From Phycisphaera mikurensis NBRC 102666 (GTDB taxonomy: Bacteria; Planctomycetota; Phycisphaerae; Phycisphaerales; Phycisphaeraceae), in contig NC_017080.1 of NCBI RefSeq assembly GCF_000284115.1, forward strand, positions 2,190,001-2,222,000: a stretch of DNA of 32,000 bases. The letters run 5' to 3'. Made by a program: the position numbers and the translations under genes. Positions 1-28,823 of the stretch are shown here, piece by piece. Positions within the stretch are counted from its first letter, which is position 1; each line of letters opens with the position of its first letter. The notes under the pieces were generated by a model that did no database searches, had not been told where the DNA came from, and saw only the letters and a program-made list of their open reading frames with translations.

Positions 1-350
1 AGCTGGCGGAGCAGCTCGTCGCGGACACCGCCGGCTCGGCGGCGCGGGTGACGCAAGGGAAGCGGATCGTGGAGGTCACGGACCAGCGGGCGGACAAGGG
101 CGACGCGGTGGACCGCTTCCTCGGCGAAGCGTCGGCGGCGGGCACGCCCTACGCGGCGGTGCTCTGCATCGGCGACGACCGGACGGACGAGGCGATGTTC
201 CGCGGCCGCCGCGGCGACCCCGCGGCGGTCACCGTCCGCGTCGGGCCGGGGGAGACCGCCGCGGCATTCCGCGTGGCCGGCACCGATCGCGTGCTCGCGC
301 TGCTGTGCGCCATCGCGGCGGAGCCGGACCGAGCCCTCGCCGGGGTCTAG
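1..350 (+). CDS. otsB: Trehalose-6-phosphate phosphatase (HAD superfamily), C-terminal fragment; the 5' end lies upstream of the window
   Basis: Frame 3 is open from base 3 to TAG 348-350. The translation ...GKRIVEVTDQRADKGDAVDRFL...AVLCIGDDRTDEAMF... carries the K-G and GDDxTDE motifs typical of OtsB-type HAD phosphatases. Codon usage is GC3-saturated. Confidence 0.8.
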   Translation, partial: LAEQLVADTAGSAARVTQGKRIVEVTDQRADKGDAVDRFLGEASAAGTPYAAVLCIGDDRTDEAMFRGRRGDPAAVTVRVGPGETAAAFRVAGTDRVLALLCAIAAEPDRALAGV

Positions 351-436
351 CGTTGCTCGCCGCCGACCGCCTCCGGCCCGCTCGCCCGGGCGCTCGCGGA
401 GGAGAAGGCACCCGAGGTTCCGGATCGATCGGCTCC

Positions 437-1516
437 ATGACCGTCTCGCACCCGCCACGCCCGCCACGCCCCGCCGAGCCGCGGACCCTGCTGAGCGCGC
501 TGCTCCGCGGAGGCCCGGCGGCGGGCCGCGGTGCCGTCGAGGCGGCGACGCTGCACGGCTCTTTCGCCGGGGTGGCCGCGGTTGTCGCCCTGCCGCTGCG
601 GAACGAGGCGGAGCTGATCGGCCCGATGCTCGCGGCGCTCGAGGCGTCGATCGGCCGCACCGATCTGGCCTGCGGCCTCGTCGCCGTCGCGAACGACACC
701 GCCGACGAATCGCCGGGCGTGATCCGCGGCTGGGCGGAGCGGACGGGCCACGCCGCGGCCGTCTGCGAGGTGCGCCTCGATCCGGAGGTCCGCGGCGCCC
801 CGCACGCGCGGCGCCTGGCGATGGACCTCGCCGCTCGCCTGGCGCCGGACGCGCTTCTCCTGACGACCGACGCCGACTGCCGCGTCGGCGCGGACTGGAT
901 CTCCGGGAACGCCACGTGGCTGGCCGACGGCGCGGTGCTCGTGTGCGGCGCCGTCGACACGGACGAAGCGGAGATCGCGGCCCTGCCCGGCCTCGTCGAG
1001 GCGTGCGGCGTCGCCGAAAGCCGCTTGTACCGGCTGCTCGAGGCGCGGTGGCGCGAGCTCGTGCCCGACGGCTCGCGGCGCTTCGTCCAGCGGGCGATGG
1101 GGGCCAGCATCGCCCTGCGGGCGAGCGACTACCTGGAGCTCGGCGGGTTGCCGACCCCGCGCTCGAGCGAGGACCGCGCCCTCGCCACCGAGGTCCGGCT
1201 GCGGGGCCGGCGCATCGAGACGCCCGAGGACGTGCGCGTCGTCGCGTCCTGCCGCCTCCTCGGGCGGGCCGAGGGCGGCATGGCGGGGGCGCTGCTCGAC
1301 CGCACCCGCTCGCCGGATCCGGAGTGCGACGAGGCTCTCGTTCCCTGGCCGGTGCTCGAGGCCCGCGCCGCCGCCTGGCGGGAGATCCACGCCAGCGGCG
1401 TCGCCGACCCGCACGGCGTGTTCGAGCGGGCCTGCGACGTGCGGCCGGGCCTGGTGGCGGAGCGGATGCGGCTGAGCGCGGTCCGCGCGGCGCTGGAAGC
1501 GGTGGACGCGGGTTGA
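437..1516 (+). CDS. Family-2-like glycosyltransferase (359 aa)
   Basis: ATG at 437 is the first start clear of otsB; the GTG at 305 in the track overlaps otsB. The fold pattern is GT-A: AAVVALPLRNEAELIGPMLAALEAS..., VAVANDTADES, and the DxD-like LLLTTDADCRV. The stop TGA 1514-1516 overlaps the next gene's ATG (TGATG). Confidence 0.7.
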   Translation: MTVSHPPRPPRPAEPRTLLSALLRGGPAAGRGAVEAATLHGSFAGVAAVVALPLRNEAELIGPMLAALEASIGRTDLACGLVAVANDTADESPGVIRGWAERTGHAAAVCEVRLDPEVRGAPHARRLAMDLAARLAPDALLLTTDADCRVGADWISGNATWLADGAVLVCGAVDTDEAEIAALPGLVEACGVAESRLYRLLEARWRELVPDGSRRFVQRAMGASIALRASDYLELGGLPTPRSSEDRALATEVRLRGRRIETPEDVRVVASCRLLGRAEGGMAGALLDRTRSPDPECDEALVPWPVLEARAAAWREIHASGVADPHGVFERACDVRPGLVAERMRLSAVRAALEAVDAG

Positions 1517-2661
1517 TGGCGCCTCCCCCCGCACCCGCCGCCGCCCCTTGCCCCGCCACCGAGCGGGGGAAGCGAGCCGATCCGGAGGACCGGTCGCTGC
1601 TGGCCGCGATCGACGGCCGCGCGGCCGCCGCCGACCGCGGCGAGGCCGATCTTTCCCGCGAGGTCGCCGCGCTGCGGCGGGCCGGCTGGCTCGCCGCCCC
1701 GCTGCCCGCCGCGGACGGTGGCCTGGGGTGGGGCACCGAGCCCGCCGGCACCCCGGGCTGCTTCACCGCGTTGCGGCAGCTCGGCCGCGTCTCCCTGCCG
1801 GTCGCCCGGATCTTCGAGGGCCACGTCAACGCGGTCGCTCTGGTCGCGCTCTACGGAGCCGACACGCTCCGCGGCAACGCCTTCGACGCGATCCGCGGCG
1901 GCGGCTGCTTCGGCGTCTGGGGGGCGGACGCCCCGGGCGACGCCGTCACGCTGCGGGGCGAGGGAGAAGCCCTCCGGCTCGCGGGAGCGAAGGACTACGC
2001 GTCCGGCCTCGGCCTGCTGTCTCACGCCGTGGTGTCCGCCCGCGTGGAAGCGGGGACGCAGCTGCTGCTCGTGCCCGTCGGCGACGCCGCCCGCGGCCGC
2101 GGCGACACCTGGCGCCTCGCCGGGATGCGGGCCACACGCTCGGGCCGGTACCGCTTCGACGGCGTCGATCCCGGCGCCGACGCCGAGCTGGGCGGCCCCG
2201 ACGACTGGTTCCGCGAGCCGCACTTCGAGGGCGGCGTGTGGCGCTACTGCGCCGCCCACCTGGGCGCCGCGGAGCGGCTGTTCGCCGAGATGCGGGACGC
2301 CCTGGCGGCCCGCGACCGGGCCGGCGACCCGCACCAGCAGGTCCGCCTCGTGCGGGCCGCGGTCGCCGTCGAGTCCGCCCGGCTCTGGATCGAGCGCGCG
2401 GCCCGCCGCGTGCAGGCCGCCGACGCCCATGCCGACGCCGCCGCGGTGTCGCTGCTCGCCCGGGAGGTCACGCAGGACGCCTGCCGCGACGTCGTCCGGA
2501 TCGTCGAGGAGGCGCTGGGGCTCGCCGCGCACGCCTGGGGCCCGATCGAGCGGACGCGGCGCGACCTCGCCGCCTTCGTCTGCCAGGCCGCGCCCGACGA
2601 CAAGCGTGCCCGCGCCGCCGAGGCCCTCGTCGCCCGCGGGGTGCTGCCGGAGCACCTCTAG
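1516..2661 (+). CDS. Acyl-CoA dehydrogenase-like flavoprotein (381 aa)
   Basis: ATG 1516 overlaps the upstream TGA; an in-frame TTG at 1513 is also possible. The size and segments RIFEGHVNAVALV, GMRATRSG, WRYCAAHLGAAERL and RRDLAAFVCQ resemble the three-domain ACAD fold. High GC3. Confidence 0.65.
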   Translation: MAPPPAPAAAPCPATERGKRADPEDRSLLAAIDGRAAAADRGEADLSREVAALRRAGWLAAPLPAADGGLGWGTEPAGTPGCFTALRQLGRVSLPVARIFEGHVNAVALVALYGADTLRGNAFDAIRGGGCFGVWGADAPGDAVTLRGEGEALRLAGAKDYASGLGLLSHAVVSARVEAGTQLLLVPVGDAARGRGDTWRLAGMRATRSGRYRFDGVDPGADAELGGPDDWFREPHFEGGVWRYCAAHLGAAERLFAEMRDALAARDRAGDPHQQVRLVRAAVAVESARLWIERAARRVQAADAHADAAAVSLLAREVTQDACRDVVRIVEEALGLAAHAWGPIERTRRDLAAFVCQAAPDDKRARAAEALVARGVLPEHL

Positions 2662-3977
2662 TGGTGCCCGACCGGCCCGAGGGCGTGGTGCTGGACCGTG
2701 CGGCGGACGCCCCGTGGGTCGGCCTCGACGAGCTGTGCCCGACTCCGGGCCTCGTCGTCCTCGTCCCGCACCCCGACGACGAAAGCCTCGGCTGCGGGCT
2801 GGCGCTCGCCGCGGCCGCGGCCGCCGGGCGGCGGATCACGCTCGTCCTGCTGACCGACGGCGAGGGCTCGCACCCCGGCTCGGCCACGCACCCGCCGGAG
2901 GTGCTGGCCCGGCTCCGGCGGGCGGAGTTGGACGAGGCCATCGACGCGCTCTGCCCGGACGAAGCTCCGCGGGTGGTCCGCCTCGGCCTGCCCGACGGCC
3001 GCTGCACCGCCGACGACGCCCTCGCCCACCTCGACGCCGCCCGGGCGTTGCTCGACGACGCCGCGCCCGCCACCGTCTGGACCACCTGGAGCGGGGACCC
3101 GCACTGCGACCACGAAGCCGCCGCCGCCCTCGCCGAAGCCCTCGCCGCGGATCCCGCGGTGGCCGTCTGGAGCTACGCCGTGTGGGGCCGCTTCGGCCCC
3201 GCCCGCGCCTCCACCCCCGGCCTCCGCCGCTTCGCGTGCGACGAGATGCGGCCGCGGAAGCGTGCCGCCGCCGGTGCCCACCGCTCGCAGCTCACCCCGC
3301 TGATCGCGGACGCCCCCGACGCCTTCCTCATGCCCGAGGCGTTGACCGAGCACTTCCTCGCGGCGCCCGAGCTGTTCCTCCCCGGCACCGGCCGGCCCGC
3401 CGACCGCCGCGCCACCTTCGACGCGTTGCACGCCGGCGACGCCGACCACTGGTCCGTCACCACCAGCGGGTACGAGCGCCAGAAGCGGGCCGTCACGCTG
3501 GCCGCTCTCCCGCGGCCCGGCTACGCCCGCGCCCTGGAGGCCGGCTGCGGCATCGGGGTCCTCACCGCCGAGCTGGCCCCCCGCTGCGGCGAACTGCTCG
3601 CCCTGGACGTCTCGCCGAACGCCGTGGAACGGGCGAGGGTTCGGCTTGCGCGTCACGGGCACGTCCGCGTCGGGGTGGCCGAGCTGCCCGCAGGATGGCC
3701 CGCCGGGACGTTCGACCTGATCGTCCTCTCCGAGCTGCTCTACTTCTTGAGCGCCGACGAGGTCGCGGACCTCTCCGTCCGCGCCGCCGCCGCCCTGGCA
3801 CCCGACGGCGTCTGCTTGCTGGTGAACTGGACCGGCCCCAACGACCTCCCCCTCGATGGCGACGCCGCGGCCGGAGCCTTCCGCGACGCGGCCGGCACGC
3901 GGTGGCACGTCCTGCGGGCCGACCGCCACGAGGGCTTCCGCCTCGACCTGCTGCGGGCGGCAACCCGCGGCGGCTGA
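2661..3977 (+). CDS. Fusion protein: N-terminal PIG-L/LmbE-family N-acetylglucosaminyl deacetylase plus C-terminal NodS-like SAM-dependent methyltransferase (438 aa)
   Basis: GTG 2661 overlaps the upstream TAG (TAGTG). The N-terminal half has the LmbE signatures VLVPHPDDESLG and GDPHCDHEAA. The C-terminal half (from about nt 3400) has SAM motif I LEAGCGIGVLT. It also has a NodS-like context: YERQKRAVTL..., LALDVSPNAVERAR, FDLIVLSELLYFL. One uninterrupted frame joins the two halves. Confidence 0.8.
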   Translation: MVPDRPEGVVLDRAADAPWVGLDELCPTPGLVVLVPHPDDESLGCGLALAAAAAAGRRITLVLLTDGEGSHPGSATHPPEVLARLRRAELDEAIDALCPDEAPRVVRLGLPDGRCTADDALAHLDAARALLDDAAPATVWTTWSGDPHCDHEAAAALAEALAADPAVAVWSYAVWGRFGPARASTPGLRRFACDEMRPRKRAAAGAHRSQLTPLIADAPDAFLMPEALTEHFLAAPELFLPGTGRPADRRATFDALHAGDADHWSVTTSGYERQKRAVTLAALPRPGYARALEAGCGIGVLTAELAPRCGELLALDVSPNAVERARVRLARHGHVRVGVAELPAGWPAGTFDLIVLSELLYFLSADEVADLSVRAAAALAPDGVCLLVNWTGPNDLPLDGDAAAGAFRDAAGTRWHVLRADRHEGFRLDLLRAATRGG

Positions 3978-6193: not shown

Positions 6194-6853
6194 GTGATCA
6201 AGTTCCGCTGCATCGCGTGCTCGAAGAAGGTCGGCGTCTCCGACGCCGCCGCCGGCAAGCGGGCCCGCTGCCCGCAGTGCTCGACGGTGATGCGGGTGCC
6301 GGTGCCCGAGCGGGTGGTCGAGGCGGATCTCGCGCTCGCCGCGGCCGAGCCGGTGATGAAGCCCGCGATGAAGGCGGCCGCCGCCACCCCGCCGCCTCCC
6401 GAGCGGCGCCGGGCGCGGGCACCCCGGCCGCCCGGTGGCGACTTCACGGTCGCCGGCGAGGTGCTCACGGCGCCCGCGGCGGCGGGCGTCCACGAGCCGG
6501 TGGCGCAGGAGGAGCGGCGGATCCGGCAGGACGCGATGGACTCGCTCGCCGGCCTGGCGGCGGTTTCCGACGCGGCGCCGCAGATGATGAACTTCGGGTC
6601 CGGCGTGAACCCCTCGCCGAAGCGGAAGAAGCGCTCGGCGGGTCCGCGGGTGCCCACCGCGGTCCACCCCGCGTGCGGGACGTGCGGCACGACGGTCCTC
6701 GCCTCGGCCCGGTTCTGCACGGCGTGCGGGGCGGCGCTCAAGGTGCCGGACCTGCCGGTGGACAACAACCCGATTGCGCTGCCGATGACGGTCCGCCCGC
6801 CCGCTTCGGGGTGGAAGGCGGGGTTCTGGGGCTGGCTGCTCGGCGCCCGCTGA
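6194..6853 (+). CDS. Hypothetical double zinc-ribbon protein with a low-complexity linker and Trp-rich C-terminal tail (219 aa from GTG 6194; the longest ORF starts at GTG 6086)
   Basis: There are two CxxC...CxxC ribbons: FRCIACSKKVGVSDAAAGKRARCPQCS and HPACGTCGTTVLASARFCTACG. The tail is GWKAGFWGWLLGAR. GC3 rises sharply only after GTG 6194, so I prefer that start. Confidence 0.55.
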   Translation: MIKFRCIACSKKVGVSDAAAGKRARCPQCSTVMRVPVPERVVEADLALAAAEPVMKPAMKAAAATPPPPERRRARAPRPPGGDFTVAGEVLTAPAAAGVHEPVAQEERRIRQDAMDSLAGLAAVSDAAPQMMNFGSGVNPSPKRKKRSAGPRVPTAVHPACGTCGTTVLASARFCTACGAALKVPDLPVDNNPIALPMTVRPPASGWKAGFWGWLLGAR

Positions 6854-6895
6854 GGCCGATCCCAAGCGATCCACGGGCGTCCGCTGATGCACCGG

Positions 6896-7004
6896 CCTGG
6901 GTGCCACGCCCCTTGGGGGGTGCCTGGGTGCCACGCCCCTTGGGGGGTGCCTGGGTGCCACGCCCCTTGGGGGGGTGCCTGGGTGCCACGCCCCTTGGGG
7001 GGTG
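6896..7004. repeat. Tandem direct repeat, 4 copies of a 27-bp unit CCTGGGTGCCACGCCCCTTGGGGGGTG (the third copy is 28 bp with one extra G)
   Basis: Copies read directly at 6896-6922, 6923-6949, 6950-6977 and 6978-7004. They are otherwise identical. The array is intergenic, between convergent genes ending at 6853 (+) and 7080 (-). Confidence 0.95.
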
Positions 7005-28751: not shown

Positions 28752-28823
28752 CTCTCCGCCTCTCCGCCTCTCCGCCTCTTCGTCTCTTCGTCTCTCCGTC
28801 TCTCCGTCTCTCCGTCTCTTCAT
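28752..28823. repeat. Tandem octamer repeat, 9 copies of CTCTYCRY: 3x CTCTCCGC, 2x CTCTTCGT, 3x CTCTCCGT, 1x CTCTTCAT. It lies inside a pyrimidine-rich plus-strand tract of about 100 nt
   Basis: Read directly with 8-bp phasing from 28752 to 28823. It sits in the 182-bp divergent intergenic region between hpt (ATG 28660, minus) and the FlgI-like gene (ATG 28843, plus). The array ends 20 bp before that ATG. Confidence 0.95.

Follow-up and report, generated by a model that had tools for sequence, protein, structure and literature searches.

A widespread four-enzyme cassette in Phycisphaera mikurensis and its comparison with thiol, Nod-factor and amino-sugar pathways

The early steps of mycothiol and bacillithiol synthesis (MshA/MshB and BshA/BshB) follow a common logic, in which an N-acetylglucosamine (GlcNAc) glycoside is made and then de-N-acetylated by an enzyme of the PIG-L/LmbE type, exposing the amine. 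Nod-factor tailoring uses a GT2 glycosyltransferase (NodC), a de-N-acetylase (NodB) and the methyltransferase NodS. The nitrososynthases KijD3, DnmZ and ORF36 are flavin enzymes of the acyl-CoA dehydrogenase (ACAD) fold that act on the amine of amino sugars. Here, we describe a cassette encoding enzymes of all these kinds, located at 437-3977 of a 32,000-nucleotide (nt) stretch of Phycisphaera mikurensis NBRC 102666 DNA. The whole stretch (74% GC) is called the window in the following, and coordinates count from its first letter. Three open reading frames (ORF1 to ORF3) encode a GT2-type glycosyltransferase, an ACAD-fold flavoprotein, and a PIG-L deacetylase domain fused to a NodS-like methyltransferase domain.

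The cassette is a real, widespread and uncharacterised pathway. We read it as a self-contained cytoplasmic module of four activities that tailors a carbohydrate and whose product is made in a stress programme, a reading to which we assign a probability slightly below one half (about 0.45).

Conservation, spread and fusions of the cassette

An alignment of the PIG-L and methyltransferase domains was scanned over one genome per species, and the 80 best related loci form the set used here. Their six-frame open reading frames were searched with the window proteins and subsequently with profiles built from the matches. The loci cover five phyla. The majority belong to Actinomycetota; Alpha-, Beta- and Gammaproteobacteria, Bacteroidota and Acidobacteriota are also represented. 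An ACAD-like gene lies directly upstream of, and contiguous with, the PIG-L and methyltransferase sequences in every one of the 80 loci, and a GT2 gene adjoins this trio in 74 (four of the six exceptions are situated at a contig edge). Chance adjacency of the four domains is thus excluded, and conservation of the gene set as a neighbourhood across phyla, named as a check in a preliminary description of the window, is borne out.

The GT2 gene is found upstream on the same strand in the P. mikurensis window and in Erythrobacteraceae, downstream on the same strand in Actinomycetota, and downstream on the opposite strand in Bacteroidota and many alphaproteobacteria. The PIG-L and methyltransferase domains are fused in Actinomycetota, most Bacteroidota and P. 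mikurensis and are encoded by separate genes in Alphaproteobacteria. An exhaustive profile search with a limit of E <= 1e-30 yielded 552 clusters (50% identity). The cassette family is present in at least seven phyla, in genera including Methylobacterium, Arthrobacter, Deinococcus, Streptomyces, Bradyrhizobium and Pseudomonas. Copies on plasmids or chromids were detected in Deinococcus (eight records, adding Deinococcota), Paracoccus, Novosphingobium, Streptomyces, Bradyrhizobium and others. Outside their own class, the planctomycete proteins are nearest to those of Erythrobacter and Qipengyuania, with up to 58% identity for the ACAD-like protein and 50-53% for PIG-L. This closeness to Erythrobacteraceae, together with the common GT2-first gene order, suggests that the cassette moved horizontally between phyla.

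Fusion proteins provide a second line of evidence. As listed in Table 1, the ACAD-like protein was found joined to GT2, GT4, PIG-L and methyltransferase domains and to a domain resembling a glycoside hydrolase. The latter is an N-terminal TIM-barrel domain of approximately 400 residues, carried by the ACAD-like protein of the Deinococcus radiophilus plasmid pRadio2 (L088 4698-6947) and by P0373; it contains NEI and ETG motifs, gives a weak GH53 match and looks like a clan GH-A glycoside hydrolase. All fusion partners are either cassette members or carbohydrate-active domains, with the ACAD-fold protein as the hub in every case. Part of the metagenomic fusions could be frameshift artefacts; fusions were found in several orders, one of them in a finished Deinococcus plasmid. 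Together with the translational coupling described below, the fusions argue strongly that all four activities belong to a single carbohydrate pathway, in which they probably act as a complex. In several phyla the cassette is accompanied by a GT4 gene paired with a GT28-C-like gene of approximately 319 codons (L083 3448-5533, L005, L008, L064, L068). This pair and the fusion of GT4 to the ACAD-like protein suggest larger glycan products in some lineages.

All-against-all clustering of the flanking open reading frames and a Pfam census revealed no conserved fifth gene, be it a transporter, a reductase, a sugar-nucleotide enzyme or an acyltransferase. The census, based on the second half of its set, covered 128 nearest neighbours and gave 165 different families, none of them constant. 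The lack of a fifth gene indicates that the substrates of the cassette are probably common metabolites. It also bears on an improbable reading, in which the module acts on a xenobiotic or antibiotic that enters the cell, modifying or detoxifying it, or mends a metabolite damaged under stress: no transporter or precursor gene is conserved, the genomic context is variable, with plasmid copies and transposase neighbours, and glycosylation, methylation and flavin oxygenation are known inactivation chemistries. However, a deacetylase has no obvious role in detoxification, and the constant four-part make-up, like the fusions, suggests a pathway with ordered steps on a single scaffold. Anti-phage defence was considered too and rejected, as PADLOC returned only a generic methyltransferase match.

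Coupling and predicted activities of the three proteins

Direct reading of the sequence showed that the stop codon of ORF1 (TGA, 1514-1516) overlaps the start codon of ORF2 (ATG, 1516-1518) within TGATG, and the public genome annotation has the same 1-nt overlap. At TAGTG, the ORF2 stop (TAG, 2659-2661) likewise overlaps a GTG (2661-2663). In the public annotation of the same genome ORF3 starts at the next GTG, 2664, two bases past the ORF2 stop; coupling is tight under both readings. The ATG at 437 and its surrounding sequence are kept in an 81%-identical Phycisphaerae metagenome contig (L082), and the first 45 residues of ORF1 are folded confidently in the structure model; an older annotation of ORF1 with 314 residues is probably too short. 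ORF1 to ORF3 probably form a single transcription unit with coupled translation, into which transcription probably continues from otsAB.

ORF1 is a GT-A/GT2 glycosyltransferase with conserved predicted catalytic residues; its putative donor sugar and inverting transfer are predicted from the family. The family profile matches GT2 structures (PcManGT, ArnC, GtrB) at 2.7e-9. An AlphaFold model with a predicted local distance difference test (pLDDT) score of 92 gave exclusively GT2 enzymes as top Foldseek matches (PcManGT, K4CP, TarS/TarP, HAS). In an alignment of 25 family members, D90, T144-D145-A146-D147 (the DxD motif), E245-D246 and S271/R273/G276/R277 are invariant. Hydropathy on the Kyte-Doolittle scale peaks at 1.61 over 19 residues; this most hydrophobic segment coincides with a beta-strand predicted within the GT-A core, which makes a membrane-spanning helix unlikely.

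ORF2 resembles the two-component (group D) flavin monooxygenases more than it does the true acyl-CoA dehydrogenases. Among the Pfam ACAD domains, the C-terminal one passes its cutoff (25.6 against 22.4 bits), whereas the N-terminal (21.2 against 22.9) and middle (19.5 against 33.3) domains remain below theirs. Within NCBIfam, SfnB (1.2e-8) and then DszC come closest. A profile search of the PDB ranked DszC first (7e-19), followed by MsuC, KijD3 and DnmZ, and ORF36 was also matched. The model of ORF2 (pLDDT 90) has the three-domain ACAD fold with its alpha/beta/alpha layout; Foldseek placed MAB_4123, MsuC, DszC/TdsC and DnmZ first, and true ACADs (SCAD, IVD and others) fit the model with a TM score of about 0.77. 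Residues H103, W135, K159, S163, D350, Q357 and D361 are invariant in the family alignment, as are R98, R205, R243, R268, R316 and R349; further invariant arginines are R277 and R346. H103 and S163 align with a histidine and a serine of DszC. The alignment contains no invariant glutamate near the C-terminus; the invariant D361 lies near and is a possible base. As group D monooxygenases are the nearest relatives, oxygenation is more likely than desaturation.

The ORF3 protein is 100% identical to an entry annotated 'PIG-L family deacetylase'. Its N-terminal domain matches PF02585 with 81.2 bits (cutoff 28.2, E 1.2e-22, residues 33-160), and H37-P38-D39-D40-E41 and D146/H148/D150/H151, which form the zinc site HPDDE...HxDH, are invariant in 17 PIG-L homologues. 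In NCBIfam this domain comes nearest to BshB2 and BshB1, and TT1542 is the nearest solved structure. Its scores for MshB, BshB and Mca (43, 38 and 18 bits) stay below the respective cutoffs (195, 182 and 224), so that orthology to any of them fails. The C-terminal domain matches the NodS family PF05401 (52.1 bits, cutoff 24, E 1e-13) and displays a readable class I S-adenosylmethionine (SAM) motif, LEAGCGIG. The NCBIfam NodS model scores E 5e-19, but 68.7 bits against a cutoff of 300. In the PDB this domain matches 4isc (E 1.3e-32), NodS 3ofj (1.5e-14) and then amine N-methyltransferases. Its nearest characterised relatives are all amine N-methyltransferases: NodS, PEAMT, GenN, TylM1-like enzymes and CalS10. 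Neither nodA, nodB nor nodC was found in the window or in related loci, and none of the three ORFs reaches an NCBIfam equivalog cutoff.

The likeness of a GT2, deacetylase and NodS-like set to NodC/NodB/NodS, combined with the ACAD fold and the Pfam ACAD matches of ORF2, would also fit a true acyl-CoA or acyl carrier protein dehydrogenase that supplies an unsaturated acyl group, the module then making a lipo-amino-glycoside resembling a Nod factor. We consider this highly improbable. The best sequence and fold matches of ORF2 are monooxygenases, and the cassette has no conserved companion gene for an acyltransferase (NodA-like or other), an acyl carrier or a ligase. Moreover, ORF2 has Ala358 and Trp242 at what we take, from a hand alignment, to be the positions of MCAD Glu376 and IVD Glu254. 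The GT2 protein has no predicted membrane-spanning segments, unlike the processive NodC.

The preliminary description had identified a GT2 enzyme and a fusion of PIG-L to a NodS-like domain in a chain of three ORFs linked by TGATG and TAGTG, beginning 86 nt past a trehalose gene. These points hold: both overlaps are read in the sequence, the upstream stop codon lies at 348-350 and the ORF1 start at 437, both ORF3 domains score above their Pfam cutoffs with the zinc site intact, and the weak Pfam match of ORF1 is backed by the family profile and the structure model. It had also proposed an oxidation or desaturation by an ACAD-like enzyme, of which the ACAD fold stands; the subtype does not, since monooxygenases of the DszC, MsuC and nitrososynthase type are nearer and desaturation is less likely.

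Table 1. Features at the cassette and fusion proteins that contain the ACAD-like domain (aa, amino acids)
Feature	Position in window, or record	Strand	Assignment or basis
3' end of bifunctional trehalose-6-phosphate synthase/phosphatase gene (OtsA-OtsB fusion)	3..350	+	TIGR00685, PRK14501
Intergenic spacer, 86 nt	351..436	+	block GGAG...ATCGATCG..CCATGA conserved with L082
ORF1	437..1516	+	359 aa; soluble GT-A fold, GT2-type glycosyltransferase with C-terminal helical extension
ORF1/ORF2 stop/start overlap TGATG	1514..1518	+	sequence and genome annotation
ORF2	1516..2661	+	381 aa; ACAD-fold flavoprotein, group D monooxygenase type
ORF2/ORF3 stop/start overlap TAGTG	2659..2663	+	sequence; alternative start GTG 2664
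ORF3	2661..3977	+	PIG-L domain fused to NodS-like methyltransferase domain
ORF3 N-terminal domain, aa 1-245	2661..3395	+	PIG-L/LmbE zinc-dependent de-N-acetylase
ORF3 C-terminal domain, aa 246-438	3396..3977	+	NodS-like class I SAM-dependent methyltransferase
Downstream oxidoreductase gene	starts 4115		
GT2::ACAD fusions	P0274, P0374		
GT4::ACAD fusion	P0398		
GH-A-like::ACAD fusions	P0373; Deinococcus L088		
ACAD::PIG-L fusions	P0362, P0296		
ACAD::methyltransferase fusions	P0370, P0399		
Methyltransferase::ACAD fusion	P0384		
ACAD::PIG-L::methyltransferase fusion	P0408		

Stress-gene context and the proposed pathway

Genes of the stress response recur next to the cassette. A KatE-type catalase gene is present in 8 and a DUF892/YciF-like gene in 4 of the 80 loci, and both also occur in two further loci (L086 and L087). 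Dps is encoded in 10 of the 80, directly upstream of the cassette in Arthrobacter and Pseudarthrobacter. KatE and Dps neighbours occur in several independent lineages. By our own estimate, each of these stress genes would be expected by chance in less than one locus of 80, given one to few copies per genome. The Deinococcus plasmid copy is flanked by BON-domain and MscS genes and by insertion sequence elements, and Ku, LigD and a DNA ligase are encoded within approximately 5 kb of the Bradyrhizobium plasmid copy. OsmY-like genes are among the neighbours as well. Our conclusion is that the cassette forms part of the gene sets of stationary phase or of the general stress response.

Promoter motifs were also inspected. 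GGAAC-N16-17-CGTT is the consensus published for EcfG, a general-stress sigma factor. Six alphaproteobacterial loci carry this motif at a distance of 9-35 nt upstream of the cassette's first gene, in exact form in L035 (6668-6692), L061 (6757-6782) and L063 (10392-10416, minus strand), where about 0.04 exact sites are expected, and with one mismatch in L002, L057 and L069. A motif in L077 was dropped because it overlaps the GT2 profile match. As a separate observation, four Curtobacterium loci (L042, L043, L047 and L052) share near 6400-6510 an identical motif resembling those of extracytoplasmic function sigma factors, GGAACAGCACCGGGGTGTCGTCGTT, approximately 400 nt upstream of the ACAD-like gene; it may lie inside the upstream gene.

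Trehalose genes are a further class of neighbours. The gene ending upstream of ORF1 in the window matches trehalose-phosphatase (TIGR00685, E 4.5e-15) and the bifunctional model PRK14501 (E 3.5e-17). In the full genome it encodes a 749-residue fusion of Glyco_transf_20 (OtsA) and Trehalose_PPase (L081 5438-7687). The earlier assignment to otsB is hence right as to the phosphatase domain and has to be extended, as the gene is an OtsA-OtsB fusion and not otsB alone. The same fusion adjoins the cassette in the second Phycisphaerae contig (L082), the remaining neighbours of which differ. We regard it as a neighbour of the cassette, possibly co-transcribed with it. The 86-nt spacer contains no terminator-like and no sigma-70 promoter-like site in a scan that is weak at 74% GC.

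Elsewhere, trehalose synthesis by two other routes is encoded at the cassette. In Nocardioides, TreX-TreY-TreZ lie approximately 170 nt downstream of it. In Pseudomonas turukhanskensis (L050 1435-9985), treY, a small open reading frame and glgX are followed after a 13-nt gap by the four cassette genes, in what looks like a trehalose/alpha-glucan operon that includes the cassette. OtsA is encoded nearby in Tsukamurella. The trehalose locus of P. syringae may once have been delimited as PSPTO_3125-3134, of which the last four genes, PSPTO_3131-3134, may be this cassette. The treY/Z operon of P. syringae, defined as PSPTO_3125-3130, is needed by the bacterium to make trehalose and alpha-glucan and to tolerate osmotic stress and desiccation (PMC8982409).

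Operon adjacency to trehalose synthesis genes of three pathways in three phyla, and carbohydrate-active accessory genes in some loci (GT4, GT28-like, the GH-A-like domain), are what one would expect if the GT2 enzyme glycosylated trehalose or a maltooligosaccharide and the other enzymes tailored the added amino sugar. This is decidedly unlikely, in that trehalose synthesis genes are near only about 5 of 87 loci and KatE and Dps are commoner. The greater frequency of the latter two speaks for membership of one regulon rather than use of one substrate. On the same grounds the trehalose-related acceptor suggested in the preliminary description is unsupported, and the otsAB adjacency is better explained by co-regulation; a role in a stress programme would account for it without trehalose as substrate. 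Trehalose genes as a universal neighbour were rejected, since a phmmer search with the OtsAB fusion gave only one further locus (L056) among the 80; they stand as a pattern of a minority of loci.

For the four-activity module we propose the following steps. The GT2 enzyme would transfer an N-acetylhexosamine, most likely GlcNAc from its uridine diphosphate (UDP) form, to a common cytoplasmic acceptor. Neither an acceptor-specific nor a sugar-nucleotide gene is conserved beside the cassette. The PIG-L domain would then strip the N-acetyl group and bare the 2-amine, by analogy with every characterised PIG-L system. The bared amine would be N-methylated, in keeping with the nearest characterised methyltransferase relatives, all of which methylate amines. 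Finally, the flavoenzyme, supplied with reduced flavin by a housekeeping reductase, may oxygenate either the amine, by N-hydroxylation or beyond, or a position nearby; oxygenation of the amine is modelled on the nitrososynthases, which do so on amino sugars and match ORF2 over its full length (E 1e-13 to 7e-12). Judging from the fusions, the enzymes may form a complex built around the ACAD-fold protein. The product would be made in a stationary-phase or general stress programme (osmotic, desiccation, oxidative). A narrower version of this proposal seems possible but doubtful to us: the product would be a widespread N-methylated, possibly N-oxygenated hexosaminide, made by a complex with the ACAD-fold protein as scaffold, which serves as stress protectant or redox buffer beside trehalose, catalase and Dps.

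The order of steps could also be the reverse, with UDP-GlcNAc being deacetylated, N-methylated and N-oxygenated first and the GT2 enzyme transferring the finished sugar. It is general knowledge that nitrososynthases and sugar N-methyltransferases (TylM1, DesVI) work on sugars bound to thymidine diphosphate (TDP), and both groups are among the matches. The many invariant arginines of ORF2 named above could bind a nucleotide diphosphate, but they could equally bind the flavin phosphate. Of all cassette members, the GT2 gene has the least fixed position and may be found upstream, downstream or on the opposite strand. The fusions of GT2 to the ACAD-like protein fit tailoring before or after transfer alike. 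Against this, no characterised PIG-L enzyme is known to act before transfer; MshB, BshB, PIG-L and the aminoglycoside and teicoplanin deacetylases act after it, on GlcNAc-glycosides, and we judge the reversed order to be unlikely.

Several observations weigh against the proposal that the cassette tailors an amino sugar under stress. The sugar, acceptor, order of steps, product and role are all taken from family resemblance. Donor specificity of GT2 enzymes cannot be read from sequence, and PF00535 scores 18.2 bits on ORF1, below its gathering cutoff of 23.3, which many ORF1 homologues pass. ORF2 is far under every NCBIfam equivalog cutoff (34 against 431 bits), and in Foldseek true ACADs are nearly as close to it structurally as the monooxygenases are. 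A flavin reductase is neither encoded in the cassette nor conserved across the 80 loci; many group D flavin monooxygenases rely on housekeeping reductases. The PIG-L family also holds amidases of non-acetyl amides, such as Mca. Many of the 80 loci are phylogenetically related, and stress genes adjoin the cassette only in a minority. None of the Erythrobacteraceae or Methylobacterium cassettes tested had an EcfG-type motif upstream, and a SigF/SigB-type motif (GTTT-N14-18-GGGTA) was absent from all 79 cassette upstream regions searched, mostly actinobacterial, with 0.3-1.2 expected.

Two repeats were observed elsewhere in the window. A near-perfect 27-nt tandem repeat (GCCTGGGTGCCACGCCCCTTGGGGGGT) with four copies and a 97% match occupies 6895-7004, just past a zinc-ribbon gene ending at 6853 and beside minus-strand genes. 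An 8-nt microsatellite, CTCTCCGT, with 8.5 copies and a 95% match, is located at 28752-28819.

Comparison with described systems

Differences in enzyme classes, in missing partners and in equivalog scores place the cassette outside the mycothiol/bacillithiol, Nod and nitrososynthase systems. Mycothiol and bacillithiol synthesis employs a retaining GT4 enzyme and a cysteine ligase (MshC/BshC), whereas the cassette has a GT2 enzyme, no ligase, and in addition a flavoenzyme and a methyltransferase. The PIG-L domain is closest to the NCBIfam families BshB2 and BshB1, yet the scores fall well short of equivalog level (43 against 195 bits). In the Nod system, NodB belongs to the CE4 family and NodC is membrane-bound and processive, whereas the cassette deacetylase is of the PIG-L family and its GT2 enzyme appears soluble. 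The cassette lacks a NodA acyltransferase, occurs mostly in non-rhizobial bacteria, and reaches a NodS score of only 69 against 300 bits.

Among the leading fold matches, the nitrososynthases have the top identity to ORF2, although at 23-24% it is still low. They act on TDP-deoxyamino sugars in antibiotic clusters, whereas no TDP-sugar pathway genes are found at the cassette. DszC, SfnB and MsuC, which match ORF2 best in sequence and fold, act as oxidising enzymes on organosulfur compounds, and their genes lie together with those for sulfur acquisition and for reductases; DszC aligns well only with the N-terminal two thirds of ORF2. The PDB entry 4isc, matched by the ORF3 methyltransferase domain, is a solved 164-residue 'Methyltransferase' without functional annotation, and the strength of the match makes it probably a structural-genomics member of the cassette family.

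Full-text literature and NCBIfam yielded no paper or curated family that names the cassette, and the main text of the Erythrobacter litoralis general-stress paper does not mention its enzyme families. The earlier statement that no characterised pathway is known with this enzyme set thus agrees with the literature searched, and no NCBIfam equivalog applies. The four enzyme families are familiar; it is their combination that has no named pathway. If the product is protective, the cassette would contribute, so far unrecognised, to the survival of bacteria in desiccation and stationary phase. Should the proposed pathway be true, flavin chemistry on amino sugars would extend beyond antibiotic pathways, and a new member would join the glucosamine-based protective metabolites, a class that now holds mycothiol and bacillithiol.

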